The position numbers were made by a program, and so were the translations under genes. 64,000 bases of DNA from a bacterium (GTDB taxonomy: Bacteria > SAR324 > NAC60-12), in the NCBI GenBank assembly GCA_965205865.1, contig CBDBHR010000026.1, forward strand, positions 160,001-224,000, in the 5' to 3' direction. Position 1 is the stretch's first letter, and each line of letters starts with the position of its first letter. This document shows positions 7,883 to 36,787 of this stretch, in pieces. Below the pieces are notes generated by a model. That model worked only from the letters and a program-made list of their open reading frames with translations. It was not told where the DNA came from and ran no database searches.

Positions 7883-7969
7883 ATCGCCAAGAATCAAGGT
7901 CACACTTGCGAAATTTCAACATTGAGTCTATATTAGCAACAATGGTAGATATCATAAATAGGCACGAAA

Positions 7970-8191: not shown

Positions 8192-8206
8192 TTGGAGACT
8201 TCAAAA

Positions 8207-8464: not shown

Positions 8465-8507
8465 ACCGTTTGCAGCATCGGGTAGGCAGCGGTTTTTTGA
8501 CCCCTTT

Positions 8508-13717: not shown

Positions 13718-14034
13718 TATCTAGTCCCCAGTCCACTTTGCCTAGCTTCTCATGAACGCCCGAGATAGTGTGTCCCGCGGGGTAGCTGAAATAGGGGTCA
13801 ATACTCTCAGGGATGAAAGACTTGACGAAGGTGATTCGCCCGCCATATTCAGGTGCACTCACCATTTTTCCGGTGGATGGATCTTTGACCATCTTGGCGG
13901 CCCAGACCTGGCCAGCCATGAAGACGCTTGCTCCCAGGATGAGAGCCAGCAGGGTTGTGCTCAAGGTTGAGCTGCTTTTTTGATTAATTTTTTGATTAAA
14001 CATACGAGATTCTCGTTTTTGATGTTTAAAAATA

Positions 14035-15786: not shown

Positions 15787-15794
15787 TCACCATT

Positions 15795-15938
15795 ATTCCT
15801 CAGTGGCGAGTGCTTGTGTCATCCTGGACTTAATCCTCGCTCTTCTCTGTGTCAGTCCTTGAAAATACTGTGCAATCTTGCCTTTCTCGGAACGAAAAGC
15901 ATGGGATTCAGAGCGCATCATTTTAAGGACTGATGAGC
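15795..15938 (-). repeat. ~144-bp repeat, second copy at 55106-55248 (+)
   Basis: Reverse complement closely matches 55106-55248. Confidence 0.85.
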
Positions 15939-16052
15939 ACTCGGCACGCGTGAGATATGAAAATAATCTGGATTAATTGTCAGTCAATCAATCCAATTAT
16001 TGGAACAATTTTTGTGGTAAGTCAGGAATCTTCAGGATGTTTTTAAGTGCTT

Positions 16053-16264
16053 TTGGTAAATCCCTCCACTCTTCTTGATGTTTTTCCAATTCTTGACCCA
16101 CGAGAGCCGCATCAATTTGAGCAAACCTCTCAACCAAGCTGCTTTTGCCTTTGAGCAATTGGTAAATCCCTCCACTCTTCTTGATGTTTTTCCAATTCTT
16201 GACCCACGAGAGCCGCATCAATTTGAGCAAACCTCTCAACCAAGCTGCTTTTGCCTTTGAGCAA
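16053..16264. repeat. Perfect 106-bp tandem duplication inside a degraded ORF
   Basis: 16053-16158 equals 16159-16264. Confidence 0.9.
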
Positions 16265-16770
16265 GATGTTCATATATTGATGATTGCTCAGGTTTTGGAT
16301 AAGGGGTGTATTGGCGAGGATCGCTTTAAAGCTTTTCGTCAGTAAGGAATGGTCGCCGCTTTTTTAAACAGATTTCCCGATAACGTGGCTCTCTTCAGCT
16401 CATCGAGATGCTGGCTTAAAGCGCGAAGGGCCTCAGAGCCCAAAATTTTTTAACAAACCATGGGAAAGCAATAAATTTCTGACTTCCTCTCTGGAGATGC
16501 TTATTCCACGCCGACGACAATTTGCTGCAGGATCTCGACCGCGCTCTATGTTTGCCACAACCTCGATTCGGGTTTGATTTTTAAGGTTAAATGTAATGGT
16601 TCATCTGCTATACCCTTCGGTGTCATTTTCCACATTCGTTCAGAATGACACAGCTTTGAGTGGGTAACAAGCTATCGAAGCAATCCAGTTAAAAACCAAC
16701 ACTAAGAGAATATTTCAGTAGCCAAGCGCTCATGTCGCGCGATTGAACGCCTAATAATCTTTTAAGCGAA

Positions 16771-17109
16771 TCAAGATTTCTCCGGTCCTTGCCAGCCAAA
16801 TTTTGCAAAATCGACGCTTTGGTGGCGGTCAAAACGGACTCCTTCCTCTTCCAGTAATTCCCGCTGCAGGATGCTCCCGTGGCCGCTGCTCCGCGGGCTG
16901 ATTTTACCTTCGCTGTTGATAACTCGCTGCCAAGGCACATCCGATTCCCAGGGAGTGGCGGACATGGCATACCCGACCATCCGCGCCGCGCATCCTCCCA
17001 CAATACCGGCAATCTGACCGTAAGTGGCCACTTGTCCATAAGGAACTTGACGGACCACTGCGTAGACACGTTCGTATAGATGAATGGATTTTGAAGATTT
17101 GGTGGGCAT
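16771..17109 (-). CDS. Alkyltransferase-like protein (ATL/YbaZ, MGMT family)
   Basis: VPYGQVATYGQIA, ARMVG, PWQRV (Trp in place of the catalytic Cys). Confidence 0.88.
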   Translation of the reverse strand: MPTKSSKSIHLYERVYAVVRQVPYGQVATYGQIAGIVGGCAARMVGYAMSATPWESDVPWQRVINSEGKISPRSSGHGSILQRELLEEEGVRFDRHQSVDFAKFGWQGPEKS

Positions 17110-17131
17110 TTAAAGATAGACAAAATGCCGG

Positions 17132-18298
17132 TCAATAGGATTTAGGCAGCCCCAGCGCTTTTTCGGCAATAAAACAAAGGATCAGCTGCGGACTGATAGG
17201 CGCGATACGACAGATCATGATTTCCCGCATTAGCCGCTCCACGTGAAATTCCTTGGCGTATCCCATTCCACCATGAGTCATCACCGCTTGCGCGCAGGCT
17301 TTGAAACCTGCCTCCGCTCCCAGATACTTGCCAGCATTGGCTTGCAAACCACAGGCTTGCTGACTGTCATACAAACTGGCTGCCTGCATGGCCATCAAAT
17401 AGGCGGCTTCGAGTTCCATCCAGGATTCTGCCAGAGGATGCTGAATAGCTTGATTCTTGCCAATTGGCCGTCCAAAAACAACTCGCCTTGCAGCATAGTT
17501 CGCGGCGCGGGTCAGAGCGTTTTGTCCAATGCCAACTGCTTCAATGCCGACAAGAATTCTTTCAGGGTTCAAGCTATGAAGGATGTATTGGAATCCTTGT
17601 CCCTCTTCACCAATCAAATCACCGGCAGGGACAGGCAAATCCTCAATAAAAAGTTCATTGGAATCAACCGCCTTACGTCCCATTTTTTCGATTCTCCGGA
17701 TGTCGACATAGTCGCGATCGAGGTTTGTATAAAACAAGCTGAGTCCCGCAACGCGCCGGGAACTGTTCTCTCGAGGGGTGGTGCGGGCCAGCAGCATGAT
17801 TTTATCCGCTTCCTGGGCCGTGGTTGTCCAGATTTTAGATCCTCTGACGCGATAGTGGTTTCCCGTTTTAACGGCCCGGGTTTCGATCGCAGCGGTTTCC
17901 AAGCCCACATTGGGTTCAGTTACTGCAAAACACACTTTGACATTTCCCCGGATCAAATCGGGCAACCACTTTTGCTGTTGCGCCTTAGTGCCAAAAACCA
18001 GAATGGGGTGAGGGCCAAAGAGGTTGATATGGATTGCGGAAGCGGCGCTCATAGCCCCGGAACTGCGCGCCACCTGATGCATCATCAAGGCGGCTTCCGT
18101 AACTCCCAGGTTGGCGCCGCCAAATTCCTCGGGCATCGTTATCCCCAGCCATCCCCCTTGAGCCATGGCCTGGTAGAAGTCTTCAGGGAAATCACCCTTT
18201 GTGTCTTTTTCCAGCCAATATTCGTCGTCAAAATTTGCGCATGTTTCTGCAACATGATCGCAAATGGCTTTTTGTTCGGGGGTCAGTGAAAAATCCAT
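17132..18298 (-). CDS. Acyl-CoA dehydrogenase
   Basis: FAVTEPNVG, GSKIWTT, RRVVFGRPIG, HGGMGY. Confidence 0.93.
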   Translation of the reverse strand: MDFSLTPEQKAICDHVAETCANFDDEYWLEKDTKGDFPEDFYQAMAQGGWLGITMPEEFGGANLGVTEAALMMHQVARSSGAMSAASAIHINLFGPHPILVFGTKAQQQKWLPDLIRGNVKVCFAVTEPNVGLETAAIETRAVKTGNHYRVRGSKIWTTTAQEADKIMLLARTTPRENSSRRVAGLSLFYTNLDRDYVDIRRIEKMGRKAVDSNELFIEDLPVPAGDLIGEEGQGFQYILHSLNPERILVGIEAVGIGQNALTRAANYAARRVVFGRPIGKNQAIQHPLAESWMELEAAYLMAMQAASLYDSQQACGLQANAGKYLGAEAGFKACAQAVMTHGGMGYAKEFHVERLMREIMICRIAPISPQLILCFIAEKALGLPKSY

Positions 18299-18313
18299 CG
18301 TGCTCCCTGAATT

Positions 18314-19447
18314 TCACGGATAAGCCAGTTGGACATAACGCTCCATGTGAAAGCTGTCGTCGCCGAACATTGTATTGATCATGGATACTCGCTTGAAATA
18401 ATGCCCCACATCCAATTCATCAGTCATGCCAATTCCTCCGTGGATCTGAATCGCATTTTGCCCGATAAAACGAATGGCTTTTCCCAATTGGACTTTGAAA
18501 GCAGCAATGGCTTGTGCCACTTGTTCTCCCTCATCGACCTTCATGGCTGCCATGTAGAGCATGGACTTCACCTGCGCATATTCGATGAACATTTCAGCCA
18601 TGATCATCCGCAGGGATTGGAATTTCCCAATAGGCTGGTTGAATTGCACCCTGATTTTACTGTACTCCACTGTCTTCTTATAAAGCATTTCCAAAGCGCC
18701 CACTGCTTCTGCCCCCAGTGCAACAATCGCTTCATGGACCACATTTTCCAACAGGGGGAGCCCTTTTCCTTCCTCGCCAATGAGATTGTCAGCACTCACT
18801 CTGACCTGATCAAAGCGGATATCGGCTGCTTTGAATCCGTCCACGGTACGCAGGGGAGTTTTTGAAATTCCGGGAGTATCGGCATCCAGGTGAAAGATCG
18901 AAATTCCCTCTTGCTCTCTTTGTTCTCCTCCCGTTCGGGCCACGACCAACAACCTGTCTGCCACATGTCCCCCCAGCACGAATATTTTTTCACCATCGAG
19001 CAAGTAATCAGAACCTGCTTTGCCGGCAGTCGTATTGACATCAAATAGATCATAACGACTTTGGATTTCAGAGAAGGCGACGGCATAGATCCGACTGCCT
19101 GCAATGATTGCTGGAATATGATCAGCTTTCTGCGTAGCATGTGCGCCTTTTCTGAAAAATCCACCTGCAAAAACCACGGAAGAAAAATAGGGTTCTACAA
19201 GAATGCCTTTGCCGAACTCCTCCATAATGGCCATAATATCGACAGCAGTGCCGCCATAGCCCCCTTCTTCCTCAGAAAATGGCACACTGTTCCAATCCAG
19301 ATCTGCAAACGTTTTCCAGTGCCGACGACTGAGTCCTTCCTCGGATTCCACAATTTTGCCGCGTGTGGCAAAGTCATATTCATTTTTTATAAAATTACTG
19401 ACACTTTGTTTCAGCAAGATTTGTTCTTCCGTAAATGTAAAATCCAT
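18314..19447 (-). CDS. Acyl-CoA dehydrogenase, PimD-like small subunit
   Basis: RVQFNQPIGKFQ, IQIHGGIGMTDE. Confidence 0.9.
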   Translation of the reverse strand: MDFTFTEEQILLKQSVSNFIKNEYDFATRGKIVESEEGLSRRHWKTFADLDWNSVPFSEEEGGYGGTAVDIMAIMEEFGKGILVEPYFSSVVFAGGFFRKGAHATQKADHIPAIIAGSRIYAVAFSEIQSRYDLFDVNTTAGKAGSDYLLDGEKIFVLGGHVADRLLVVARTGGEQREQEGISIFHLDADTPGISKTPLRTVDGFKAADIRFDQVRVSADNLIGEEGKGLPLLENVVHEAIVALGAEAVGALEMLYKKTVEYSKIRVQFNQPIGKFQSLRMIMAEMFIEYAQVKSMLYMAAMKVDEGEQVAQAIAAFKVQLGKAIRFIGQNAIQIHGGIGMTDELDVGHYFKRVSMINTMFGDDSFHMERYVQLAYP

Positions 19448-21614: not shown

Positions 21615-24230
21615 ATGAGTACCGAAGCAAAAGAAAAGCGCTTTCTCGACGCGTTGGAATCACTTTTCACGGGCGCGGAGGTTGAGGGAGACTCCGGTTT
21701 TATCAACCTGATGCGCCTGAAGCGCGGTTATTTCAAATCCCTGCGCCCGAAACTGGTGACAGCCATTGACGGGCGCGCCGCGAAAGACACCGACTTCCGC
21801 GAGGAACTGTTCGACAAACTCCATACCTTCTTCTCCCGCTATTTCTGCGAAAGCGGCTCCATCTACTTCCGCCACCTGCCCGCCTTCTCGAAAACCTACG
21901 AGCATGTCTATAGCGACGGCGAGGACGTTGCGCTGTCCTGGAAAACCCGCATGCTCTATTACGTGAAGTCCGACGTGCTGCTACGCTCCATGCCGGTAAA
22001 ATTGGAGGACAAAAACAATCCCACACGCACCAGACTGTTTTATTTCGACGCCTCCGAGGTCGAGCACAAAAAGAACAACGAACGCCGCGAGTTCGTCTTC
22101 GAGATTGCCGAAGTGAAAAGGACCACCGAAGGAAACGTGGTTCATTTGAAGGTCTCCTACTCTCAAAAGGGCAAAACAACCAACGCCGGAACCATCATCA
22201 AGAAAGCAAAGAATTCGTCCGGTGCCAAAGTCCTTTTGACCGAAGACGATTTACAAAATGCCTTTCGAGTTTTCAGGAGGCAAACCGAAGTTGACTTTTT
22301 CATCAACAAGGACGCCCGTGGCTTCCTCCGTGAGCAATTCGATCTCTGGCTTTATCAATACCTCTTCCAGGAAGAAAGCATCTTTGAACAGAAGAGACTC
22401 TCTCAACTGCAGGCCATTCAGCAAACCGCCTATGACATCATCGACTTCATTGCCCAGTTCGAAGATGAACTGCGGCGGGCATGGGAAAAGCCCAAGTTTG
22501 CGCGCAAGGTTCATTACGTGGTGACACTGGACAAACTGCCCGTCACTCTCCTGGCGAAGATTTCCGCACACCAGGGAGCGCAGACCCAGATCAAGGAGTG
22601 GCAAGAACTCGGCATGGTGAACGAGCAATTTTCCATGGAGGAGTTGAACAAAGGACAGGGCAGATTGGGCATTGAAACCAACGGCCCGACCAACGACGAT
22701 TGCCGCTTTCTGCCCTTGGACACCAGACACTTCAAGGATTTGGAGTTGGACATTCTCGACGTATTCGGTGATCTGGACGAGGCACTGGATGGTGAATTGG
22801 CGCACAGCGAAAACTGGCAGGCGTTGAATAATCTGCAACGGCGATATAAGGGAAGGGTGAATTGTATTTATATTGACCCACCGTATAACACAGAAAAGGA
22901 TGAATTCCTTTATAACGACCGCTATAAGAGCAGTTCTTGGCTTTCCATGATTTTTGATAGAACAATCTGTGCTAAAAGTTTTCTTGGAGAAGCAGGAACT
23001 TTTTGGGTGAATCTCGACGATGGAGAAATGCCAAACCTACGCTTGGCTTTGGATGCTATTTTTGATCGCAATTCTTTTGTTGGCAACGTTTGTTGGAAGA
23101 AAACAAGTGGTGACAACAAACCAAATTTTGCATTTGTTCACGACAATTTAATCATATACGGCAATTGTGGAAGCAAGCCACAACGTGCGGATATTCCTCT
23201 TGATAAGCAAAGTTCTTATAGCAATCCCGACAACGATTCGAGGGGTAAATGGGCCTCAACCGATTATCGGTCGAAGTGGACCAAAGAAGAAAGACCCAAT
23301 CTTTATTACGGAATACGTCAACCTAATACTGGAGAAATTATCTATCCAGATTCGTATTCCGAATCGCCAAGGGTTTGGGGGTGTGATGAGAGTACTCACA
23401 AACAAAATGAGGAAAACAACTTGGTGTGGTGGGGTGATAATGGACTTGCAAATGAACCTCGCAAGAAGAGATTTTTGGTAGAACATGAAGGGGTCAATAT
23501 CAGGAGTATTTGGAATAACGCCGGTTCGAATGATTCTGCTTCTCAGGAATTAAGAGGGTTGTTTGGAAAGAAAATCAACGAACGTCTTAATCCCAAACCC
23601 AAAGAGTTGGTTCAGAAAATCTTATCCTACACCGTGAAAGAGAACGGTTTTATACTTGATTATTTTGCCGGTTCCGGTACGACCGCCCATGCGGTCATCA
23701 ACCTGAATCGTGAAGACGAAGGCAACAGAAAATACCTGCTTATTGAAATGGCAGGATATTTTCATACAGTCCTGCTATCGCGCCTCAAGAAAGTAGTCTA
23801 TTCCAAGGACTGGAGAGACGGACAGCCGATTTCACGAGAAGGCGTCAGTCACTTCCTCAAATACTACACCCTGGAACAATACGAAGAGACTCTAAAAAAC
23901 TCACGCTATGAAGATGGTGAGCAACTAGAGATAGACAGCATGAAATCGTCCTTCGAGCAATACGTCTTTTTCGGAGACGACAAACTCGCCCACGCCGTCA
24001 AGCCATCTAGCAATGGAAATCTTACCATCAATCTCCACGACCTCTACCCGGACGTCGACATTGCGGAATCCTTATCCAACATTCTGGGCAAACCAATCCG
24101 TCGCCGCACCGCCAATACCGTAACCTTCTCCGATGGCGTCACCGAGCCAATCGACCCTGCCACCATGACCGAGGAAGAAAAACGGCACTTCATTTCACTG
24201 GTCAAACCCTATTTGTGGTGGGGGGAGTAA
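21615..24230 (+). CDS. mod: Type III R-M Mod-like adenine DNA methyltransferase
   Basis: IYIDPPYN precedes LDYFAGSGTT (beta-class order), with the TRD between; upstream of a Res gene. Confidence 0.88.
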   Translation: MSTEAKEKRFLDALESLFTGAEVEGDSGFINLMRLKRGYFKSLRPKLVTAIDGRAAKDTDFREELFDKLHTFFSRYFCESGSIYFRHLPAFSKTYEHVYSDGEDVALSWKTRMLYYVKSDVLLRSMPVKLEDKNNPTRTRLFYFDASEVEHKKNNERREFVFEIAEVKRTTEGNVVHLKVSYSQKGKTTNAGTIIKKAKNSSGAKVLLTEDDLQNAFRVFRRQTEVDFFINKDARGFLREQFDLWLYQYLFQEESIFEQKRLSQLQAIQQTAYDIIDFIAQFEDELRRAWEKPKFARKVHYVVTLDKLPVTLLAKISAHQGAQTQIKEWQELGMVNEQFSMEELNKGQGRLGIETNGPTNDDCRFLPLDTRHFKDLELDILDVFGDLDEALDGELAHSENWQALNNLQRRYKGRVNCIYIDPPYNTEKDEFLYNDRYKSSSWLSMIFDRTICAKSFLGEAGTFWVNLDDGEMPNLRLALDAIFDRNSFVGNVCWKKTSGDNKPNFAFVHDNLIIYGNCGSKPQRADIPLDKQSSYSNPDNDSRGKWASTDYRSKWTKEERPNLYYGIRQPNTGEIIYPDSYSESPRVWGCDESTHKQNEENNLVWWGDNGLANEPRKKRFLVEHEGVNIRSIWNNAGSNDSASQELRGLFGKKINERLNPKPKELVQKILSYTVKENGFILDYFAGSGTTAHAVINLNREDEGNRKYLLIEMAGYFHTVLLSRLKKVVYSKDWRDGQPISREGVSHFLKYYTLEQYEETLKNSRYEDGEQLEIDSMKSSFEQYVFFGDDKLAHAVKPSSNGNLTINLHDLYPDVDIAESLSNILGKPIRRRTANTVTFSDGVTEPIDPATMTEEEKRHFISLVKPYLWWGE

Positions 24231-24239
24231 GAAAGACGC

Positions 24240-26117
24240 ATGTACGCAAAAAGAATCCAGATTATCAATTACGGTCCCATTGACCATCTTGACATCAACT
24301 TCCCCTTTGAGGGAGAAAATCCCCAGCCGGTCTTGCTGGTTGGTGAGAATGGTTCGGGAAAAAGTATATTCTTGTCTCATATCGTCAATGGATTGATGGC
24401 AGCTCAGGGGGTTGTCTATCAGGAAAATAGCGAAGTCGAACAAGGAAAGGTGTATAAACTCCGGTCTCCTTCTTATATAAAAACCGGAACTGAATATTAC
24501 TTCGGTCGAGTCGATTTTGAAGAGAATTTGTATCAGAAGGAATTGCAACTGCAGCGCCTGAAAAAAGATTGTAAAAAGCCCGTTGAGTTTGCCGGCAAGG
24601 ATGCTGATAAGTTCAATGATGCTAGTAAGTTATGGCAATCTATGCCTGCAAATAAAGCCAGCATTCCTGACAGTAGTTTTCATCATGAAAAAGAAAAAAG
24701 CAGTATAGAAGACTTTTTTAAAAGTCGTTGTGTACTTTATTTTCCTCCTAACAGGTTCGAGGAACCCGCATGGCTGAATGAGGGAAACTTACGGGCTAAG
24801 GCCGAGTATATGGGCTTGAAGAACCTCCAGGGATACACGAATCGTAAGATTATTAATGACTCTCCCCTCCAGGACAACCAGAACTGGTTATTTGAAGTCT
24901 TATATGACCGTTGCGCTTTTGAAGTTCAAACCACTCAGTTACCTTGGAATACTAAGGATCAAAATCAAAAACACCTTAGTATTAATCTTCCGGTCTTCAC
25001 AGGACATACTGGAACAGCAACCACCATTTATGAAAGTGCTCTCAATATTGTTCGTTCAATCTTCCGGGCAAACGGGAATTTAAGACTTGGTATTGGAAAG
25101 AGGCAGAATCGGAGAGTATCGTTAATGCAGGGAGATAAGGAACTCGTTCCCAATATTTTCCAGCTGTCCAGTGGTGAGACTTCTCTACTGAATCTATTTT
25201 TATCCATCCTGCGTGATTTTGATTTATCCGGTTCACGGTTTTCCAAAGCCGGAGATGTGAAGGGTATTGTTGTTGTGGACGAGATCGACTTGCACCTGCA
25301 CGTCATTCACCAGTATGAAATCCTTCCGCAATTGATGAAGATGTTCCCCGGCGTTCAATTTATCGTTACTACCCATTCCCCGCTTTTCGTGCTGGGGATG
25401 AAGAAGACTTTCGGAGAAGACGGTTTCGCTCTTTACAGGCTGCCTCATGGACAACTAATCAGTCCCGAAGAGTTCAGCGAATTCGGTAATGCTTACCAGT
25501 CATTTACTGAAACAGAAAGGTTTAAGGACGATATCAAAGTTGAAATTGAAAACGCCCAAAAACCTGTTGTATTCATGGACGGTAAAACGGATGTAAAATA
25601 CTTACAAAAAGCCGCTGAATTGCTTAATCAAGAAGCAGTACTTGAGAAACTTCAATTAATGGATGGTAAGGGCTATGGAAATCTGAATAAAATCTGGAAA
25701 ATATTTGAATTCCAGACTTTCCGGAATGATACCGCAGAAAGTAATTCTTCTCCATGACTGCGATAAGCCAGGTTGTCAGACAAAGGAAAGGCGTTTAGGC
25801 GGAATATTCCACGACAGGAAGGTCATCCTCTGGAGAAAGGGATCGAAAACCTGTTTGAGAAAGCGACTATAGAGAAAGCACGAAAGCATAAGTTAGCATT
25901 CATAGTCATCACGACTGAACATAAAAAGTTTAAACCAGACGAAGAGGAAACAGTCCCTGAAAAATGGGAAGTCAATGATGACGAAAAAACCAACCTTTGC
26001 AACTGGCTGTGCGAGAATGGCACGGGGGAAGACTTCAAACATTTTCATATGATATTCGATTTACTGGAAAAGATATTGATTGATGATCAAGATGCAAATG
26101 CGACGCCACTACCCTAA
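24240..26117 (+). pseudogene. ABC-type ATPase fused to a TOPRIM-like domain (OLD-like), broken by two local indels near 25700 and 25770
   Basis: GENGSGKS, LSSGE, VVVDEIDLHLH, TTHSP; VFMDGKTD; VILLHDCD in the +1 frame (25741-25764); GIENLF back in the original frame. Confidence 0.7.
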
Positions 26118-26220
26118 CTTTACTAACGGCAAAACCGAATCAACCGACATTGCCACCATGATTGAGAAAGCAAAATGGTACTTCTTTTCATTGATCAAAC
26201 CCTACTTGTGGTGGTGGGGA
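26104..26220 (+). repeat. Degenerate copy of the mod 3' end (~24110-24227)
   Basis: Encodes FTNGKTESTDIATMIEKAKWYFFSLIKPYLWW versus Mod FSDGVTEPIDPATMTEEEKRHFISLVKPYLWW. Confidence 0.9.
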
Positions 26221-26221
26221 T

Positions 26222-27619
26222 ATGTTTAAAGTCAAAATTAAAAATATTGGCAAACTCACTGATACGGAAATCAATATAGGCCAGTTTACCGTGTTTGCCG
26301 GCCCGAACAATACCGGAAAGAGTTTTGTTTCAAAACTCCTGTATTCCTTTTTCAGTTCAATGCAGGGCAACCCTGTCCAAACCCAATCCGAACAATTCCT
26401 TATTCCTGTTATGCAGCACATGGCAAGCGTGGTAGAGTGGGAGGAGCGATCTGCCGGACGGTCTCCTGAAGATAATCCCCAGTTGCTTGATTTGGAATCC
26501 AAGATCAAGGAAACAAATGAAATTATTAGGAGTGTTGACAACATTGAGGAGTTAATTCAGGTTTGGCATTGCCTTGTCAATCTAACGGAAGGAATGTGGA
26601 ACGTATCTCAAGATCTCCAGCAGACATATTCGAAAGAATCCCGAAAGACAGAAAAGCTGGAGTGGGGGGTAGATCATCTACACAATTCACTAAGGGTTAT
26701 CACACTTTCCTTGACCCAGTTGAGAGACACTTTTGCCAAAGGGGATCCGCTCTCGTTCATAATTTCCGGCACAGGACGCCATATCAAAGACAACCTGATC
26801 GAAAATTTTCAGGTGCCCAACCTGTCTGATCTCAGTGCCGACCCCGATAAACGATCAGAGGTTGAGGTTGGACACTTCGGAAAATTTGTATATTCGAACG
26901 AGGAAGTGGACCTCAGCATGGATATGTCTTGGATGTCTTCTTATTCCGGGGCAATCTACTTGGAATCTCCCATTTATTGGAAACTGAAAAACGCATTGGA
27001 GCAGATAAGACAGCAGGAGGAACACCGTAGTTTTTTGTGGGGGAAGCCCAGCAAACGACTGGATGGCGTACCGAAATATTTCCATGATCTGGCCAGCGCC
27101 CTCAGCTTTCAATACACCGGGGAGATGGCCTTCCCTACCATCCATGAAAAACTGACCGGTCCTCATATTCTTGGTGGAAAGGTCACGATTTCCGAATTGG
27201 GCAATCTGTCATTTCAGGAAAACGGTCGTAGTTTTTCTCTGCCCGTCACCGCGATGGGAATAGCCAACCTCGGCATCCTGGCGCTACTGATCGAGCGCAA
27301 GGTGCTGGATGAAGAATCTCTCATTTTCATTGACGAGCCGGAAGCGCATCTGCATCCGGCCTGGCAAGTCATCATGGCGGAGGCTCTCTTTGAGTTGTCC
27401 CTCCAGGGAGTAACCGTAGTCATTGCCACGCATAGTGTGGACATTCTCAAATGGCTGGAAGTACACGTAAAGAAAAATCCCCAGGACGAGCCGCACATTG
27501 CGTTAAATCAATTTCCTGCCAATGGTGACGGAGTCGATGAAGATTTTGAGTCCCGAATGGCGAGAATCAAACAGGAATTGACCAAGCCCTTCTCCGATCT
27601 CTACCTGAAAGGAATATGA
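26222..27619 (+). CDS. ABC-type AAA ATPase (AAA_15/AAA_21, AbiEii-like), probable defence component
   Basis: IKNIGK, GPNNTGKS, IFIDEPEAHLHP, ATHS. Confidence 0.82.
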   Translation: MFKVKIKNIGKLTDTEINIGQFTVFAGPNNTGKSFVSKLLYSFFSSMQGNPVQTQSEQFLIPVMQHMASVVEWEERSAGRSPEDNPQLLDLESKIKETNEIIRSVDNIEELIQVWHCLVNLTEGMWNVSQDLQQTYSKESRKTEKLEWGVDHLHNSLRVITLSLTQLRDTFAKGDPLSFIISGTGRHIKDNLIENFQVPNLSDLSADPDKRSEVEVGHFGKFVYSNEEVDLSMDMSWMSSYSGAIYLESPIYWKLKNALEQIRQQEEHRSFLWGKPSKRLDGVPKYFHDLASALSFQYTGEMAFPTIHEKLTGPHILGGKVTISELGNLSFQENGRSFSLPVTAMGIANLGILALLIERKVLDEESLIFIDEPEAHLHPAWQVIMAEALFELSLQGVTVVIATHSVDILKWLEVHVKKNPQDEPHIALNQFPANGDGVDEDFESRMARIKQELTKPFSDLYLKGI

Positions 27620-28182
27620 CTGCGCTTGACCAATTCCTGGAACCGATAAAGGTTGCTGGCGAGTCCCTTGGCGATAAACACCAGGCGTACCGTATGGATG
27701 GCAATTCGCCGAAACCTGATATGAGACGAGATGCCGGTTTGGGTACTTGTGATTGCTGTGATTACTTTATATTGGCCAAGGACCATTTTGTCGTCTTAAT
27801 TGAAGAAACCCAGCTTATGAGAACTATAGAAAGGTTGAAATCTAAATACTATTACCTTCAATCTGATCATCAGACAGAATTCGTCAACAAGTATATCCGA
27901 CAAGAAAACCGACTGAAAGTCTATGGATCAATGCTAGTGCTGTGCCGCTTGGCTGCCGCATGCAAAAATACGAATCGCCTTCTTCGCACGAAAAAATACA
28001 GGTTCTGGCTGGTCGCCAGCGGCATGAACGAGCCAGAGCACACACGAGTTTTCGACAACTTGAAGGATCGATTGTTCCAAGAGTTGAGAAGCGTTTTAAC
28101 CGGCAAAGTCATGGATCGTGTTGAAATAATACCGTCCGACCGGCTTTCGTCAAAACTGGCAAAACATGCAGCCACTTCTTAA
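27616..28182 (+). CDS. Hypothetical protein, possible PD-(D/E)xK-like partner of the ATPase
   Basis: ATGA overlap with the ATPase; CCDYFIL...VVLIEET motif. Confidence 0.65.
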   Translation: MTALDQFLEPIKVAGESLGDKHQAYRMDGNSPKPDMRRDAGLGTCDCCDYFILAKDHFVVLIEETQLMRTIERLKSKYYYLQSDHQTEFVNKYIRQENRLKVYGSMLVLCRLAAACKNTNRLLRTKKYRFWLVASGMNEPEHTRVFDNLKDRLFQELRSVLTGKVMDRVEIIPSDRLSSKLAKHAATS

Positions 28183-28222
28183 ATTACGACCTGCCAGAAA
28201 TGTGGTTCGTAGCGGAGATTGA
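28182..28222 (+). repeat. Degenerate copy of the res 5' region (30485-30519)
   Basis: 27/35 nt identical; NYDLPEMWFVAEID versus Res NYGDLPETWRVPEIE. Confidence 0.75.
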
Positions 28223-28257
28223 CATCAAGAAGAAAATCACGCAACTGGAGCAAAATC

Positions 28258-29448
28258 ATGTTGAGTAACCAAGAATTGGAGAAAATTCTCAAAGTGGGAG
28301 AAAGCGATTGCGTGGAATTAACCGAAGCTACGAGAGACCTGGATAAAATCCGTGAGGCAATATGCGCCTTTGCCAATGACCTGCCTGCTCACGGTAAGCC
28401 CGGCTTTGTCTTTGTCGGAATCAAGGACGATGGAAGTTGCGCCAACTTGATAATTAATGATGACCTGTTAAAAAAGCTTGGCGGATTACGAAACGAAGGA
28501 AAAATCCTTTCTTTCCCGATCATGGAGGTTGACAAACGCACGCTGAAAGGCTGCGAAGTTGCCGTGATACAGGTGGAACCTTCGGACAATCCTCCGGTAA
28601 GAGTCGATGGCCGGTGTTGGATACGGGTCGGACCGAGACGCGGTCAAGCTACCCCTGAAGAAGAACGCCGCCTGACGGAGAAAAGGCGTTGGGGGAATCT
28701 GCCCTACGACATGCAGGGAGTGAAAGGCGCATCCGTGGAAAAAGATTTAGATATGCGGAAATTCGAGGTTGAATACCTGCCGACTGCTGTTTCACGACAG
28801 GTATTGGAAGAGAATGCTCGCAATCCGCAAGAACAATTACAGGCGTTGCGCATGACGGCGCAAGACGGGACACCGACCGTTACAGCTATTCTCATGTTGG
28901 GTATAGACTCGCGTTACTGGTTCCCGGGTGCCTATATTCAATTTGTTCGCCATGCAGGAAACGAGGTCACGGATGCAATTGTTGATCAAAAAGAAATTCG
29001 TGGAACCTTGCCGGAGCAAATACTTGAAGTAGACCGCCTTCTGAAACTAAATATCACCACTGCTCTGAATACCAGTGGAGAAAGGCATATCGCAGAACCG
29101 GATTATCCCTTTGAAGCGCTACGTGAATTGGTCGGCAACGCGGTAATTCACAGGAACTACGAAAATTCCAACTCTCCCGTGCGAATTACCTGGCTCGCAG
29201 ATTGCGTAGAAATCATTATCCCCGGTTCGGTTTATGGTTCGGTAACACGCGAGAATTTTGGGGAAGCCGGCGTAACAGACTATCGTAATCCTACCATTGC
29301 CGAGGCTATGAAAAATATGGGTTTCATGCAGCGATTCGGAATCGGTATCGCTACGGCGAAAAAAGTGCTGGAAGAAAACGGTAATCCGCTACCCGAATTC
29401 AGAATAGAAGAAACTTTTGTTTTCGTTAAAGTAAAAAAACGACAATGA
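28258..29448 (+). CDS. AlbA_2/Schlafen-domain protein with HATPase_c_4-like C-terminus
   Basis: GESDCVELTE, ICAFAN, GFVFVGIKDDG, ALRELVGNAVIHRNY, RNPTIA, GIGI. Confidence 0.8.
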   Translation: MLSNQELEKILKVGESDCVELTEATRDLDKIREAICAFANDLPAHGKPGFVFVGIKDDGSCANLIINDDLLKKLGGLRNEGKILSFPIMEVDKRTLKGCEVAVIQVEPSDNPPVRVDGRCWIRVGPRRGQATPEEERRLTEKRRWGNLPYDMQGVKGASVEKDLDMRKFEVEYLPTAVSRQVLEENARNPQEQLQALRMTAQDGTPTVTAILMLGIDSRYWFPGAYIQFVRHAGNEVTDAIVDQKEIRGTLPEQILEVDRLLKLNITTALNTSGERHIAEPDYPFEALRELVGNAVIHRNYENSNSPVRITWLADCVEIIIPGSVYGSVTRENFGEAGVTDYRNPTIAEAMKNMGFMQRFGIGIATAKKVLEENGNPLPEFRIEETFVFVKVKKRQ

Positions 29449-30440
29449 AAACCATCGCCTTTTTTAACAACAAAGGCGGCGTGGGCAAGACCTCTCTGGT
29501 CTATCACCTTGCCTGGATGTTCAGCGAAATGGAATACCGCGTCATCGCAGCCGACTTGGATCCCCAGGCCAATCTGAGTGGGATGTTTCTCGATGAGAAC
29601 AAGTTGGCAGAGCTTTGGCAGAATACGGAAAAAAAGAAGAACATCAATGAAGATATTGCACCCCTGTTTGAAGGGATAGGAGACATTTCGACAGAACCTC
29701 ATATTGAGCAAATCGAAGAGCGAATCGGCTTGTTGGTGGGGGACCTTGCCCTTTCCAAGCGTGAAGACGAGTTGTCAGAACAATGGCCGAAGTGCCTGAA
29801 CCGGGAAAAAAGAGCGTTTCGTGTCATAACCGCCTTTGCACGACTAATTTCCAGCGCGAGCGAGAAATTTCAGGCAGATTTGGTGCTGGTGGACGTCGGA
29901 CCGAATTTAGGGGCGATTAACCGGGCCGCGCTGATAGCCAGCGAGCATGTGGTCATACCACTTGCGCCTGACTTATTTTCCCTACAGGGTCTGAGAAATG
30001 TGGGGCCGACGCTGAGAGACTGGAGGGGGGATTGGAAAGATCGCATCGAGCGTAAGCCGAAAGATCTGGACATTGCGTTGCCCAAAGGCAACATGAAACC
30101 ACTCGGTTATATCGTCATGCGACATTCCGTCAGATTGGATCGCCCGGTACAAGCCTTTCAAAGATGGATTGCAAAGATACCCTCGGAATACAGGGAATCC
30201 GTTTTACAACAAGACCACTCTGAATCCCCGGCAATCGAGGCCGACGAACGTCTTCTGGCGCACCTGAAAGATTATCACTCGCTCATGCCCATGGCGCAAG
30301 AGGCGAACAAGCCCATGTTCATGTTGAAACCCGCCGATGGTGCTATCGGCGCGCACTTGAACGCGGTGTCGGACTGTTACGATGATTTCCATTCCCTTGC
30401 CAAAAAGATCATTGACAAGTTGAGTGAGAAAAAAAAGTGA
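29445..30440 (+). CDS. ParA/Soj-like (AAA_31) ATPase
   Basis: FNNKGGVGKT, DLDPQANL, DVGPNLG; overlaps both neighbours by 4 nt. Confidence 0.85.
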   Translation: MKTIAFFNNKGGVGKTSLVYHLAWMFSEMEYRVIAADLDPQANLSGMFLDENKLAELWQNTEKKKNINEDIAPLFEGIGDISTEPHIEQIEERIGLLVGDLALSKREDELSEQWPKCLNREKRAFRVITAFARLISSASEKFQADLVLVDVGPNLGAINRAALIASEHVVIPLAPDLFSLQGLRNVGPTLRDWRGDWKDRIERKPKDLDIALPKGNMKPLGYIVMRHSVRLDRPVQAFQRWIAKIPSEYRESVLQQDHSESPAIEADERLLAHLKDYHSLMPMAQEANKPMFMLKPADGAIGAHLNAVSDCYDDFHSLAKKIIDKLSEKKK

Positions 30441-33415
30441 CTGCTCCCGTTCTAGAGGGCATCGCCCAAAAACCGAACTATGGGGACCTGCCCGAAACCT
30501 GGCGAGTGCCGGAGATTGAGCGCTTCTCAGCGCAGAAGACACTTTACGACTACCAACAAGACACGCTGAGAAACGCGGCGCGGGCGCTATATCTCTACTA
30601 CGGAAAAGAAGGCGACGACTACCAACCCGCCGAACCAAAGGACGCCAATGACAGGCGAAAACAGAGCTTTGCCAGGCAATACGGCTCCTCCTCAATTGAT
30701 CAGTTCTCCGTAAAGAAATACGAAAGCCGGGCAGACCGTCAAAATCAACGACAAAACCCCGTTTTCCGCATTCAGTCCGAATTCATCACCTCGCATGGCG
30801 AAGAAATTTCATATACCCGGCTCATCAACCGCATGTGTTTCTGGCTGGCGACCGGCAGCGGGAAAACGCTGGTGATGGTGAAATTGATCGAACACCTGCA
30901 CCGGTTACGGGAACGCGGAGAAATTCCGAATCACAACCTGCTTGTCCTCGCCCCAAGCGATCATCTCATAGGGCAAATTCGCCGGACTGTCGAGGAATTC
31001 AATCAATCCGGGCTTTACATAAATCTGATTCCTCTACGGGATAGCGGGAAAACAATTCAAAGGCGGCTGGGAGATTATGCAACCGTCTATTATCACCGCA
31101 GCGACAATATATCCGACGTGCAGAAAGAAGCCTTGATCGATTACCGGCGCTATGAAAATGGCGGCAAGTGGTACGTTCTGCTGGATGAGGCTCACAAAGG
31201 CGGCAAAGAAGATTCAAAACGGCAGGCGTATTACGCGGTTATGGCGCGCGAAGGTTTTTTGTTCAATTTCTCGGCGACGTTCACCGACCCCGAAGATATC
31301 GTCACCAGCGTCAAGAAATACAATCTGGAGGAATTCATCAAAAACGGACATGGCAAAAACATCTACCTTAATGAGAATGAATACGACGCTTTCAGCAACA
31401 GACAAGCAGAAATCAGCCATGAGGAAAGGCGGAAAATCGTCTTGAAATCACTGATCTCCCTGGCCTTCGTCTCCCTGCGGATTGCGGAACTGCGCCGGGA
31501 TACCAGTTTGGACAATCTGTACCACTTGCCCCTTATGCTGACCCTGGTCAACTCGGTGAATACCAACGTTGAAAATGAAAAGAACGACTTGTGGGCATTT
31601 TTTCAAACCTTGCGAGAAATCGCTACGGGAGAAATCGATGGATCGCTATTCCGGATATCAAAAGAGGAATTGGCGTATGAATGGACAAACCGGATGCTTC
31701 TTTTCGGAGGAGATAGCGGGGGAATTAACGGAATCGATGAAAAGGCCATCAAGGATATGGAAATTGCCAGTGTGCGTGAGAGGATTTTCTCGAGTCGTGG
31801 TAAAAGCGCGTTACAACTGATCCGCAGCAAGGACAACAAAGAACTCGCCTTCCAGATGAAAAATGCGGATGCCCCGTTCGCGCTTATTCGCATAGGAGAC
31901 ACTTCCAAATGGCGCAACAATCTCCTGGCGGGTTTTGACGAAACCCGGACTCTAGAGGAGAAGTCTTTCTTTGACGAACTGGAACACAGCAGTATCACGA
32001 TTCTAATGGGTTCCCGTTCGTTCTTTGAAAGCTGGGACTCCAACCGTCCCAACGTCATCAATTTCATCAACATCGGTGGAACGGACGCAAAAAAGTTTGT
32101 CGTGCAATCCGTCGGGCGTGGCGTACGCATTGAAACCCTGCCGAACCAACGTCAACGTTGCGTTTTTCTACTGGACAGCAACGCAGGAAAGACACTGCAA
32201 ATCCATCACAACAAAGTGCAACCTGCTGAAACGCTTTTCCTTTTCGCCACCAACCGCGGGGCGATCAAGTCCGTTCTCGAAGGACTGCAAGCGGAAAGAA
32301 GTGACGTTTTTGAAAATATCACGGGCTTCACTCAAACCCCGAGACCGAAAATAAACGGGCAGGAGATGTCGCTTCTCGTTCCCGAATACAGAGAGAGCAA
32401 GGATCGTGTTACAGGACAGGCAGAATTTGCTTTGAGCTGCAAAACCCTGAATCGCTTCAAAAAATGGTTGCGCCACACATCCGGCTCGGTGCTGGCCGTG
32501 CGGGACAACCTGTCGAGTCGGGAAATAAAAACACTGCAAGGGGTCATGGAAGGCCGGAACGTTCAAATAAGAGCAGAGAAAAACTATACCAGCCTTCCCT
32601 TCCTGCAAAGTCGACTTATCTCCCATTTTTCCCAAACAAATCAAATTGCCGATACGGTGCGGGAATTGGATGAGCAAGAGGACATTGTGCATTTCCGACA
32701 AATCCGGGTGCGGTTGGACCAAGCGGAAAAGAAGGACTTGCGGGAAAAGATCAGGGCCGTGGCAAAGGGTGGTATTTCCGCAACAGAAAAGAAAAAAAGG
32801 GCACGTCAATTTGCAAATGGCAAAATCGTCAGTGAAGAGTATGAAAGATACCTGAGCGGAAAGTCTGAAGAAACATTCAAAAGCTTGAAGTTAAAACACG
32901 TACCCGAGCATTACTATGTTCCTCTGGTTGTCGCGAAGCATGGAATAGTCGACTTTATTCAGCACATTATCCGGGAACAAAGTGAAGTGCAGTTTCTAAA
33001 TCATCTGGAACAATGGCTGTCAAGCAACAAACCGGAATGGGATGCCTGGATGTTCAGCAAAATCGACGAATCTCTGGACAAGATTCACATACCCTATTAC
33101 GACGCCTCCACCAATGAATACGCTCGTTTCTTTCCCGATTTCATTTTCTGGATGTGTAAGGAGAACGACTATCAGATTGTTTTTGTCGACCCCAAGGGAA
33201 CGGAACACAAATCCGCGTATCTCAAAATAGACGGCTATCAAAAACTGTTTGAAGAAAACGGCAAAAGACGCAAGTTCCAATATCAAGAATATCGGGTCAG
33301 CGTCGCACTTTGGATGTTCAACAAGGAAGATACCGTACCAGCTGCTTACAAACGTTTTTGGACAAACAGTCCAGCAGATATTTTCGCCTTTGCTCCTACC
33401 CGACGGGTCAAGTGA
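30437..33415 (+). CDS. res: Type III restriction enzyme Res subunit (SF2 helicase + PD-(D/E)xK nuclease)
   Basis: ATGSGKT, LDEAH, FSAT, QSVGRGVR, PDFIFW...FVDPK. Confidence 0.88.
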   Translation: MTAPVLEGIAQKPNYGDLPETWRVPEIERFSAQKTLYDYQQDTLRNAARALYLYYGKEGDDYQPAEPKDANDRRKQSFARQYGSSSIDQFSVKKYESRADRQNQRQNPVFRIQSEFITSHGEEISYTRLINRMCFWLATGSGKTLVMVKLIEHLHRLRERGEIPNHNLLVLAPSDHLIGQIRRTVEEFNQSGLYINLIPLRDSGKTIQRRLGDYATVYYHRSDNISDVQKEALIDYRRYENGGKWYVLLDEAHKGGKEDSKRQAYYAVMAREGFLFNFSATFTDPEDIVTSVKKYNLEEFIKNGHGKNIYLNENEYDAFSNRQAEISHEERRKIVLKSLISLAFVSLRIAELRRDTSLDNLYHLPLMLTLVNSVNTNVENEKNDLWAFFQTLREIATGEIDGSLFRISKEELAYEWTNRMLLFGGDSGGINGIDEKAIKDMEIASVRERIFSSRGKSALQLIRSKDNKELAFQMKNADAPFALIRIGDTSKWRNNLLAGFDETRTLEEKSFFDELEHSSITILMGSRSFFESWDSNRPNVINFINIGGTDAKKFVVQSVGRGVRIETLPNQRQRCVFLLDSNAGKTLQIHHNKVQPAETLFLFATNRGAIKSVLEGLQAERSDVFENITGFTQTPRPKINGQEMSLLVPEYRESKDRVTGQAEFALSCKTLNRFKKWLRHTSGSVLAVRDNLSSREIKTLQGVMEGRNVQIRAEKNYTSLPFLQSRLISHFSQTNQIADTVRELDEQEDIVHFRQIRVRLDQAEKKDLREKIRAVAKGGISATEKKKRARQFANGKIVSEEYERYLSGKSEETFKSLKLKHVPEHYYVPLVVAKHGIVDFIQHIIREQSEVQFLNHLEQWLSSNKPEWDAWMFSKIDESLDKIHIPYYDASTNEYARFFPDFIFWMCKENDYQIVFVDPKGTEHKSAYLKIDGYQKLFEENGKRRKFQYQEYRVSVALWMFNKEDTVPAAYKRFWTNSPADIFAFAPTRRVK

Positions 33416-33701: not shown

Positions 33702-34330
33702 CTAAACAACGACTCCAAACTCATAACGATTCACAAATAATTCAATGACAATATCATGCATTTGCCGAGATTTAGAGAAACAAATGGTTTTACGGGCTAA
33801 CCTTTTAATTCGAGTCTGCAAAGTGAGGTGTTTTCTCTCAATTTTTTGCGTATTTCTTTTTCCGATCTGATGTTTATCCGGGTCGAGGTCTCGCTCGCAG
33901 GCTCCCCAATCATTGCTATAAAAACATGGAATGTCATAGGGTTTGAGGAGTTGTTTCAGCTTGAGAAAAACTTCATCTTTTCGGCTTTCTGAGGCATAGG
34001 CTGAGACTTGACCTGTTTTGTGATCAATGGCGTGCCACAGCCAGCGCTGCTGTTGTTTCTTTCCTACAAAACTCCACATCTCATCCATTTCAGCCTCTTC
34101 GACTTTGACAATCTTGATTGTCACTTCATTGGGGGCGAGTTGATGGAGTAAATTCAGATTCACCGAATCGAGATCGGATTCTTTTTTTAATTCATTAATG
34201 ACGGTGGCAGTGCTGATCCCTGGAACCCACCGGGTATTGGGCCAATCCCCACGGCTCACTGCTCAAGCAATCCCCCAAAAGTTCGTAGAGGATCAACAAC
34301 GTTTGACAGTTTATCACTTGATGATGAGAC
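33702..34330 (-). pseudogene. Degraded IS1-family transposase (InsB part readable)
   Basis: EMDEMWSFVGKK, RWLWHAID, IERKHLTLQTRIKRLARKTICFSKS; A-run at ELKK. Confidence 0.85.
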
Positions 34331-35335: not shown

Positions 35336-35420
35336 GTGACTCTGCATCCTTTTGATGGTGATAGGAAAATCAATTTTCACAAAACGTAACTATTCAGGTC
35401 TCTTAAGAACCCGTATAGTT

Positions 35421-35675
35421 AACCTGAGTTCGACATAAATCTTCAATAATATGAGTATCCTAGTTTATATGTCATCCTCGCGAAACTTATCCCCGCCAAA
35501 CTTGTCCTCGCGAAAGCGGGGAGCGGGAATCCGGATTTCAATCTGGCTGCATACCTCCGGATTCCTGCTCCCTGCTTTCGCAGGGACAAGCTTTGCAAGA
35601 ATGACAAGGTTTCTCTAAGATATGAAGATTCTATAACATATTGAATTTATTAAATTCTTATCTCGAACTCAGGTT
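35421..35675. mobile_element. MITE carrying a nested REP-like palindrome
   Basis: TIRs AACCTGAGTTCGA / TCGAACTCAGGTT; internal GTCATCCTCGCGAAA...GGGAATCC / GGATTCC...GAATGAC. Confidence 0.7.
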
Positions 35676-35678
35676 AGT

Positions 35679-35887
35679 TAGTGCTTGGCCGAAAATTAGA
35701 TAACTACATGATATTTAATGGTATTCACCTATTTTCAAGAAACGAAGATTTTGGGGAAACTCATCAAAAATCCCATTTTTTGCTGATTTTGGCCATCTGA
35801 ACACTGTATCAAACAAATCTTCATCCTGTGAAATTGAAGAAATATCATTTAATATCAGCAATTTGACTATTTTTCTGCCAAGCACTA
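35679..35887. mobile_element. Second MITE abutting the first
   Basis: TIRs TAGTGCTTGGCCGAAAA / TTTTCTGCCAAGCACTA. Confidence 0.7.
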
Positions 35888-36787
35888 GTTAAATAAAGTT
35901 GGAAAAATTCACGGGGGGATCCATCGTTTTGACGTCCTCCCATGATATTGTTCAATCAATCGGTTGGGAAGCCTCTCCTTCCCTAAAACAACAAGACATG
36001 ATCTTGGCACTATTACTTAATTACTACGCAGGGTCAAGCCCCAAATGAAAAAAATGCGGAATTCGTAAAAAAAAATAATAAATAATAAATCCGGGAGATC
36101 CACTCCTTTATGATATGGATAAAGCAAATGGAGCTATTGGGGAACAAATACGGAAGATTAAAAAAATTCCTTAAGCAAGTCAGAATCAGGAGGATTGCGT
36201 AACAATGGAGGTCAGCTATAAAAAATCTTTAGCGGTCCATCTTCGGCATGAGCCAAAAAGCGAAGATAGGGGTCAAGCCTTTTTTTGCTTTCTATTGCAA
36301 TAATACGTAACAACCAAAAGCAACCCGATGTCTGTGGTACTATGTCATGTGTCGGTGTGGATTATCGAAATCGGACCCTTTCGAGGTCCGGTATCTTTGA
36401 GGATGGCGTTTTCCATATTGATAATGGGGGCGTTATAATTGACAAACCGGCTGATGAATGCGCCCTTTTTCTCATGAATCCCGGAATTTGGATAGATTCC
36501 CGAATGAGAGTTTTCCCATCTGCGTCAACCACTTCAATGTCGCCATTTTCAAAGAGAGCGCATTGTTGCTTTCCAATGAACAGAAACAGGAAGCCCACAG
36601 GGTCTTGGAGATTGATACAAATTGATACAAATTGTTACACGCAGGATAAACTTTTTTCTGGGGTTTTGTTATCCTGAAAAGAAACGAGACTCCTTCGGAC
36701 ATCCTGAAAAAAAAGCTGAATTCTCTTGCATTTGCTTACTATAATTTTTATTTTACCAAACCATCTTTCAAACTGATTGAAACAGGA

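Follow-up and report, generated by a model that had tools for sequence, protein, structure and literature searches.

Why should the two genes of a restriction-modification (R-M) system of type III, mod and res, stand 6209 bp apart with genes of other families between them? The question is raised by a 64,000-nucleotide (nt) stretch of a SAR324 bacterium (GTDB lineage Bacteria; SAR324; NAC60-12; GenBank assembly GCA_965205865.1, contig CBDBHR010000026.1, positions 160,001 to 224,000 of the forward strand), hereafter referred to as the window, in which mod (21615-24230) and res (30437-33415) follow each other in the usual type III order and on one strand, the plus strand, without being adjacent. 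The interval between them is filled by three co-oriented modules that are separated at two junctions by relic ends of mod and res. We propose, with a probability of about 0.8, that the locus is one type III R-M operon carrying three nested defence modules and that it arose from joined mod-X-res units, X being the cargo of each unit. Lying on one strand inside a known defence system of several genes, the modules of the window are placed as embedded defence systems are.

Profile searches in Pfam and PADLOC bore out the type III identity of both subunits, which had been put forward in an earlier note made from the letters of the window alone. Mod matches PF01555 (E = 3e-26) and the PADLOC MTase_III model PDLC03638 (E = 1e-202, residues 25-857) and carries a DPPY motif, read in the sequence as IYIDPPYNT; its frame extends back to TTG 21555, with ATG 21615 as the likely start, and alignments with its homologues begin at residues 17-26. 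Res, composed of a superfamily 2 helicase and a putative C-terminal nuclease region, matches PF04851 (E = 1.8e-15) and PADLOC REase_III (E = 1.7e-21, the best stretch covering residues 450-574 only) and aligns with its homologues over residues 1-983 at 54-78% identity; the C-terminal sequence 'FFPDF ... VFVDPKG', picked out by eye, is what we take to be a candidate PD-(D/E)xK nuclease motif. The gene order, strand, tight spacing and 4-nt overlaps given in the earlier note agree with the coordinates of the open reading frames (ORFs). Nine nt after the mod stop at 24230, module 1 (24240-26117, +; cluster C7 of the survey below) starts with the ATG at 24240 of a gene for an ATP-binding cassette (ABC) ATPase with a TOPRIM-like C-terminal region, assembled as two pieces, 24240-25757 (505 aa) and 25773-26117 (114 aa). 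Module 2 consists of an AAA_15-type ABC ATPase of 465 aa (cluster C1; 26222-27619, +; AAA_15, E = 3.6e-20) and a 188-aa partner (cluster C2; 27616-28182, +), and module 3 of an AlbA_2 (Schlafen-like) and HATPase_c_4 protein (cluster C0; 28259-29448, +; PF04326, E = 2.1e-12; PF13749, E = 9.9e-14) and a ParA-like P-loop ATPase of 331 aa (cluster C3; 29445-30440, +; AAA_31, E = 9.6e-28; CbiA, E = 3.4e-13). The genes overlap by 4 nt at 27616-27619, 29445-29448 and, between module 3 and res, 30437-30440.

The relic ends were located with nhmmer, using DNA profiles of the mod 3' and res 5' ends of other loci, the window being excluded from the profiles, which were then run over all 64 kb of it. A degenerate mod 3' end had been placed at 26104-26220 and was recovered at 26095-26221 (+), where approximately the last 42 codons of mod remain (E = 9e-17); it is the best profile match after the real mod end, and its frame stops 4-6 nt past the ATG of the next gene. 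No direct repeat between 21000 and 34000 is longer than the one to which this piece belongs (85 nt, 81% identity, 24141-24225 with 26134-26218), and the piece is aligned by tblastn with Mod residues 848-889 (E = 3e-6; 8.7e-6 in a whole-genome search). By manual count its differences from the real mod end number 9, 4 and 3 at the three codon positions; because they are spread over all three, with no concentration at third positions, the relic appears to be decaying and non-coding. Among mod ends it is most like that of the window itself (77% across 115 nt, versus at most 72% to other loci) and therefore gives no sign of a distant donor. The degenerate res 5' end read at 28182-28222 held up as well: nhmmer matches 28172-28222 (E = 1e-4), second only to the real res start, and all further matches of both profiles have E-values of 0.1 or worse. 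Counted from the former res ATG (28166), which falls within the 3' end of the gene for the 188-aa protein, the relic spans 28166-28222 (+) and is laid out, in the junction alignment, as this ATG, an internal deletion of about 20 nt and about 12 res codons, 35 nt of it being 77% identical to the real res start (28188-28222 against 30485-30519). Its position supports it further, as it matches that of eight homologous junctions between the 188-aa gene and res; in 8/8 of these the res start codon lies inside the last codons of the 188-aa gene, so that the two genes overlap by about 17 nt.

Relatives of the locus allow the arrangement to be compared between hosts. Mod has no relative at E = 1e-60 or better in 40 related genomes, but the protein collection contains over 4000 homologues of it at E = 1e-50; megablast against the plasmid collection returned no match to the locus. 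We retrieved 79 loci from species-representative genomes and 80 from metagenomes, with up to 10 kb on each side. The first set was reduced to 57 sequences, the window included, that hold a mod end and a downstream res start; 54 were selected by script, and L006, L028 and L042, in which the res match was split, were added by hand. Four loci in which cargo follows mod and no res was reached (L002, L019, L021, L045) stand outside the 57. Within this genome set the gap between mod and res measures less than 150 bp in 25/57 loci and 277-8183 bp in 32/57; in the more distant metagenome set (35-50% identity) it measures 58 bp or less in 34/49 and 245-3946 bp in 15/49. Altogether 59 of the 106 pairs are adjacent and 47 enclose 0.25-8.2 kb of cargo, and nearly all gap ORFs of 100 aa or more are on the mod strand (100/102 in the genome set, 19/20 in the metagenome set). 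Variable cargo between homologous mod/res pairs, which had been set beforehand as a test, was thus found, with lengths of 0-8.2 kb and varied families. The R-M family is common in metagenome-assembled genomes of several phyla, several of these genomes bearing names that point to sponge symbionts. A cultured isolate has the same arrangement: on the Rhodothermus marinus plasmid pRHOM17201, mod is separated from a helicase-type res by two genes, one for a nucleotidyltransferase and one hypothetical. We note that this plasmid locus (L161, NC_015970.1 15684-22819) has WYL-domain and ADP-ribosylglycohydrolase genes upstream and a GIY-YIG nuclease gene downstream, and that L023 (6988-12664) has res before mod with a 62-nt gap, the reverse of the usual order, and no res within 10 kb downstream of its mod.

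Relic termini recur among these loci, as the idea of recurring scars had led one to expect. A scan with the DNA profiles at E<0.01 over 80 sequences (1.38 Mb, 116 kb of it in gaps) found nine res 5' and eight mod 3' matches within the gaps of ten loci (the window, L007, L009, L011, L014, L020, L031, L040, L041 and L042), all on the plus strand; one of the eight mod matches is a full second mod, in L007. Outside the gaps, 12 mod matches comprise 11 partial alignments inside the own mod of distant loci and one relic upstream in L007, and what else matches away from the mod and res genes of the loci themselves consists of a res stub immediately ahead of mod in L007, another downstream of mod in L045 and the res-mod order of L023. 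Where both kinds of scar stand together (L011, L014, L031 twice and L042), the res 5' piece (47-66 codons) precedes the mod 3' piece (22-296 codons) in 5/5 cases, and we therefore consider that arrays grow by the joining of whole mod-X-res units with loss of the inner res and mod. Intermediates of such growth can be recognized. L007 runs from a mod stub through C1, a res stub, a full mod, C6 and a full second mod to C0, C3 and res, and a 58-codon res stub lies directly ahead of a full mod in L159. In L031 two spacers have a common breakpoint and are near-identical over the aligned stretch; the spacer was therefore copied, as unequal recombination of stubs with real ends would do. The bracketing of the window's middle module by a mod end and a res start, which the earlier note had singled out, is found again in the first unit of L007 and in an orphan array described below. 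The accompanying suggestion that cargo accumulates at R-M gene termini needs to be divided: the recurring terminal scars agree with it, but the 5/5 order speaks for the joining of whole units and against the insertion of naked cassettes.

Seen by itself, the L007 array (7687-18457) comprises three successive units, in which mod is present twice at full length and res once; its second mod matches window Mod residues 23-518 and 682-891, and the unaligned middle is presumably the target-recognition region of type III Mod proteins. Open chimeric frames joining a Res N-terminus to a Mod C-terminus (75-351 aa) are present in L011, L031 and L042. In-frame fusion of the res 5' and mod 3' stubs was considered as a sign of selection and set aside, as it occurs in 4/5 cases, or 3/4 after copies are merged, with a non-significant binomial p of about 0.11 at a chance of 1/3.

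On this basis the window would descend from at least three ancestral mod-X-res units joined head to tail, the inner copies of res and mod having been deleted to short stubs, with mod 3' left before module 2 and res 5' after it. Its units would be mod with module 1, the res of which was lost; mod stub, module 2 and res stub; and module 3 with res, the mod of which was lost. Where a mod-X-res unit is followed by a mod-Y-res unit, a deletion running from the first res into the second mod would leave exactly a res 5'/mod 3' scar. Sequence shared between mod/res alleles would most likely have served as the homologous anchor for joining, the other side being an illegitimate join or a later deletion; the route may have been tandem integration followed by deletion or a homologous anchor combined with an illegitimate join. 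Homology-facilitated illegitimate recombination in natural transformation, in which one homologous anchor is combined with one illegitimate join, would give exactly such stubs and is a candidate mechanism only. Once formed, the stubs may act as direct repeats in further unequal recombination and so lead to the gain, loss and shuffling of modules; we adopt recombination at the stubs as a working mechanism.

The cargo itself behaves as a set of modules. The 116 gap ORFs of the genome set were clustered, and 30 cluster representatives were scanned against Pfam and PADLOC. The ATPase of module 1 (C7) is also found in L005, L006 and L041. Module 2 (C1+C2) is the sole cargo of L012 and occurs in L006, L011, L024, L029, L030, L031 and L042 as well, and module 3 (C0+C3) is the sole cargo of L028 and occurs in L007, L009, L014, L020 and L040, so that both modules do stand alone between mod and res, an outcome on which the earlier proposal had been made to depend. 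Other cargo includes a two-gene module of an HTH-peptidase M78 protein (RmrA-like) and a DUF4411 PIN protein (C4+C8); an AriAB-like ATPase (C5, sole cargo of L034); PD-T7-4 (C6); a trio of a methyltransferase, an HATPase and a third protein without assignment (C9-C11, sole cargo of L008); a ThsB TIR / PDC-M50 set (sole cargo of L038); PDC-S06, MNT/HepT and PDC-M04; and, in L037, one insertion sequence (IS) with a DDE transposase. The nested content therefore varies between homologous hosts and includes known defence families, as is characteristic of embedded systems. Module order changes beside the closest Mod/Res relatives, from C7-C1C2-C0C3 in the window to C7-C0-C1C2 in L006 and C0C3-C1C2 in L002. 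The modules retain their native neighbours, mod or a mod stub adjoining C7, C5, C4C8 and C9-11 and res or a res stub adjoining C1C2 and C0C3. Identity between loci is 39-76% for cargo, 46-79% for Mod and 54-74% for Res; as the cargo is as diverged as Mod and Res, the associations must be old, and exchange old or rare.

Decay of arrays is seen in two other genomes. A congeneric genome (G001) shares the upstream flank of the window, an acyl-CoA dehydrogenase gene and a cytochrome c' gene, at 80-85% identity, and at this same chromosomal site, directly after cytochrome c', has a decayed sister array (L174, G001:C1:1201000-1214300, reverse strand). The array begins with a fragment of 13 mod codons, a C11-type gene reduced to its C-terminal third and a mod 3' stub (E = 1e-8), continues with an intact C5-type ATPase gene (577 aa, 74% identical to the L031 copy) and ends with the last 46 codons of C3 (83% identical to the window) and a 68-codon res 5' stub (79% to the window), with unrelated transporter genes beyond. 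Over about 330 nt the C3/res junction can be aligned with that of the window, the mean column identity over the whole alignment (87%) being similar to that of the flanks; the locus therefore occupied this site in the common ancestor, and its content has since been almost wholly changed. G001 has lost the R-M genes and kept one cargo gene between stubs. The downstream flank of the window is not syntenic with G001. In the second case, a search for the 188-aa family detected it in 2/401 genomes of one class, and the single new match, in G428, lies in an orphan array (L169, G428:C1:648000-667500, positions 7088-9736) in which a C-terminal piece of Mod (aa 696-890) is followed by the ATPase and 188-aa genes and by a res stub some 31 codons long, with no full mod or res within 7-10 kb; the protein has no relative in 87 other genomes of the phylum. 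As a separate observation on G001, short repeat units in the intergenic stretch 35385-36115 of the window, downstream of a TauD-like gene, match dozens of places in that genome at 70-95% identity; a 2.4-kb query over the stretch gave 68 G001 matches, mostly at query positions 1084-1815.

The principal rival holds that the termini are passive scars, two or three complete type III systems having come to lie in tandem by unrelated events, after which redundant inner genes decayed and left ends without a role. We regard this as unlikely, though it is the strongest of the competing accounts: the 5/5 order and the full second mods of L007 and L159 are what tandem arrangement and deletion would produce, the substitutions in the window's mod stub look neutral, and breakpoints differ among loci. 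It does not, however, account for the common breakpoint of the two L031 spacers, which were copied rather than made twice, or for the reordering of modules beside closely related Mod and Res proteins in the window, L006 and L002, and the repeated arrival of tandem systems at one site needs a cause, of which the homology between alleles is the obvious one. Insertion by mobile elements (IS, transposons or an integron-like recombinase), which would make the likeness of the spacers to mod and res incidental, has far less to recommend it. A DDE transposase in the L037 gap and an IS1 transposase fragment 290 nt downstream of the window's res could be cited in its favour, but neither an integrase nor a recombinase is encoded among 39 scanned gap proteins (9 window ORFs and 30 representatives) or 13 flanking ORFs, and the spacers match mod and res at E-values of 9e-17 and 1e-4. 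The integron is nevertheless an instructive parallel. Its cassette array is a promoter-proximal string of co-oriented, exchangeable modules with short recurring separators, and the loci described here resemble it in the co-orientation, the exchangeable modules and the short recurring separators; they differ in that the separators are decayed coding ends of host genes, of about 50 to 1050 nt. No recombinase domain of an integron integrase was found in the 9 locus and 13 flanking ORFs, where transposase fragments only are seen, and no attC-type sites turned up, no attC model having been run, the spacers being explained by their homology to mod and res. Transposase fragments near the window's operon consist of a DDE_Tnp_1_4 fragment at 14917-15747 (-), 6 kb upstream of mod, and the IS1-family fragment at 33702-34259 (-).

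An assembly artefact, in which a metagenome assembler would have joined mod-X-res alleles through shared ends, has next to no probability in our estimation. Many of the related records are metagenome-assembled genomes, and the module 1 gene of the window has two indels that other runs do not share (at 25708 in 4/4, at 25781 in 3/4). A misjoin of this kind would need identical repeats, however, and the stubs are shortened and 77-81% identical to the real ends; contigs from a different study span both stub junctions, bridging 24199-26314 (mod end, module 1, stub, module 2) and 28019-28686 (module 2, stub, module 3), and stub-bearing arrays are present in the chromosome-level assemblies of L011, L014, L031 and L040-L042.

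The cargo could also be viewed as accessory subunits of this R-M family that work with Mod and Res, for instance by detecting that the enzyme is inhibited, as PrrC does for EcoprrI, rather than as independent modules. What lends this some appeal is the regularity of module 2: in 9/9 junctions its stop overlaps with the start codon of res or the relic of that codon, in 10/10 cases for which downstream sequence exists (L002 stops at the edge of a contig) res 5' sequence, whether real or relic, comes after the ATPase and 188-aa genes, and the one new match of the 188-aa search again has a mod 3' fragment on one side and a res 5' stub on the other. We nonetheless judge it improbable, given that 59/106 loci are free of cargo, that cargo is varied and includes the stand-alone families PD-T7-4, ThsB and MNT/HepT, and that an intact cargo gene or module has outlasted mod and res in G001 and G428. 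A bolder form of our own proposal would make the mod-res junction an integrase-free cassette array, in which the stubs serve both as linkers that carry ribosomes across via small overlapping frames and as repeats for exchange, and in which the ATPase and 188-aa pair is a dedicated guard of the restriction enzyme. The pair has so far been found only beside res 5' sequence; the bolder form as a whole strikes us as doubtful, a little more so than the passive-scar account.

Several observations weigh against the joining of mod-X-res units into one operon and should be set beside those that favour it. No scar was found at the module boundaries of the multi-module loci L005, L006, L024, L029 and L030, and no recent module swap was caught among the loci compared. 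The res relic of the window is short and falls below the protein-profile cut-off of E = 0.01. Counts from promoter and terminator scans equal those of shuffled sequences. Contigs from RNA libraries (two metatranscriptome runs of one study) are short, have a depth of 2-7 over the locus compared with approximately 59-60 for cytochrome c', span none of the module boundaries by 31 nt and possibly represent DNA carry-over. Finally, a joint from 24192 to 26188 in run X4, considered as a live deletion of module 1, was discarded, having a 28-nt side at 90% likeness that may be an effect of repeat alignment. The modules would be co-transcribed with mod and res, and their translation may be coupled through the overlapping stops and starts.

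Individual cargo genes deserve further comment. The module 1 product matches AAA_21 (E = 3.6e-15) as well as AAA_15 and SMC_N in Pfam, and in PADLOC a PtuA-like model (E = 1.4e-32) followed by a retron I-A ATPase. As assembled, both pieces of its gene are in the same frame, with stops at 25755 and 25764. Base 25708 is absent from the contigs of 4/4 other runs and an extra A follows 25781 in 3/4; together, the two indels put 73 nt of the gene out of frame and create both stops. With both changes made, the gene is a single frame of 625 aa that aligns end to end with the proteins of L006 (645 aa, 64% identity) and L041 (625 aa, 61%), and the 114-aa piece by itself shares 61% identity with the C-terminal end of the L006 protein. 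The break may denote a strain-specific pseudogene or two assembly indel errors. Of the ATPase-TOPRIM label given to this gene, the ABC ATPase part stands and the TOPRIM part was not confirmed by profile or fold: Pfam returned no TOPRIM match at E-values up to 5 for the C-terminal 200 aa of the L006 homologue, a PDB sequence search found no match, the model was too poor for a fold search (predicted local distance difference test, pLDDT, 50), and hhalign against the OLD TOPRIM region of L042 lined up VEGxxD and GGxG but at a probability of 1.6%. We take the label to be plausible from the reading of motifs.

The ATPase of module 2, with eight homologues among the related loci, has partial PADLOC matches to HEC-02A, NsnB, AriA and PD-T4-4_A, the best being to HEC-02A (E = 1.3e-29, residues 286-430). 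Its 188-aa partner matches no family in Pfam or PADLOC. The structural model of the partner (pLDDT 80) found no Foldseek match at E = 0.001 or better, and VIA-align gave weak matches, several of which are to ERCC4 or restriction-endonuclease folds, with Z-scores no higher than 6.8, a level that denotes a common arrangement only; a nuclease-like fold is possible from the model. A two-gene system of the HEC-02, PD-T4-4 or PARIS type was dismissed as an identity for module 2 in view of the partial match of the ATPase and the lack of any PADLOC match of the partner. The first ORF of module 3 is open from TTG 28219 (409 aa), a start that would overlap the stop of an 18-codon frame running from the relic res ATG; nine homologue N-termini begin with MLSDQEL, which favours the ATG at 28259, and the AlbA_2 gene thus probably starts there. 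A 24-nt match of 92% between the ParA-like gene (29510-29533) and res (33043-33066) was examined as an additional relic and is a coincidence, because the conserved peptide AWMF(S/G) is native to both families. In Mod, residues 1-400 (21615-22850), ahead of the methyltransferase domain, match nothing in Pfam and are highly conserved, with many invariant columns among homologues.

Defence genes nested in other defence systems have been used for 'guilt-by-embedding' in Hma, BREX, DISARM and type I R-M hosts (Payne et al. 2024, bioRxiv 10.1101/2024.01.29.577857). The type III loci resemble the hosts described in the main text of that study in their nested defence genes, in the many ABC-ATPase modules and in content that varies between homologous hosts; co-orientation was reported there for 96.7% of cases, as against 100/102 here. 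They differ in extent, as at most three embedded genes were allowed between host genes in that work and the arrays described here run through several modules to 8 kb. Type III R-M is absent as a host from its methods headings and, by term search, from its main text, supplements aside; the words recombination, remnant, truncated and hotspot and any mention of relic host-gene ends are likewise absent from the main text, in which the origin of embedding is left open apart from the idea of a 'genomic sink' (bioRxiv 10.1101/2024.01.29.577857). Earlier known cases are the anticodon nuclease PrrC inside the EcoprrI type IC hsd locus and BrxU in BREX (PMC12707154); the accessible portion of that review of R-M biology describes nothing between mod and res, and full-text literature searches, PMC12988326 among their results, gave no account of type III embedding or of relic-terminus spacers in the text they covered. 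PrrC is like the cargo described here in being an ABC-ATPase-type effector nested in an R-M operon, and offers a precedent for a guarding module; it differs in being a single fixed gene of a type I locus, without an array or relic termini. In view of their family resemblances and of the precedent of embedding, the modules of the window may act as additional or back-up anti-phage systems.

Embedding itself was to be expected; what is new is the type III host, the multi-module arrays of up to 8 kb and the readable record of how they are built and dismantled. Embedding is used in finding new defence systems, and the origin of nesting has been an open question. In these loci, what remains of the mod and res ends shows where each join lies and in what order events took place, recording growth in tandem units and full second mods and decay in the orphan cargo between stubs of G001 and G428. 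Type III systems are thereby added to the hosts of embedded defence genes, and their cargo provides a set for testing that includes the unnamed two-gene ATPase module.

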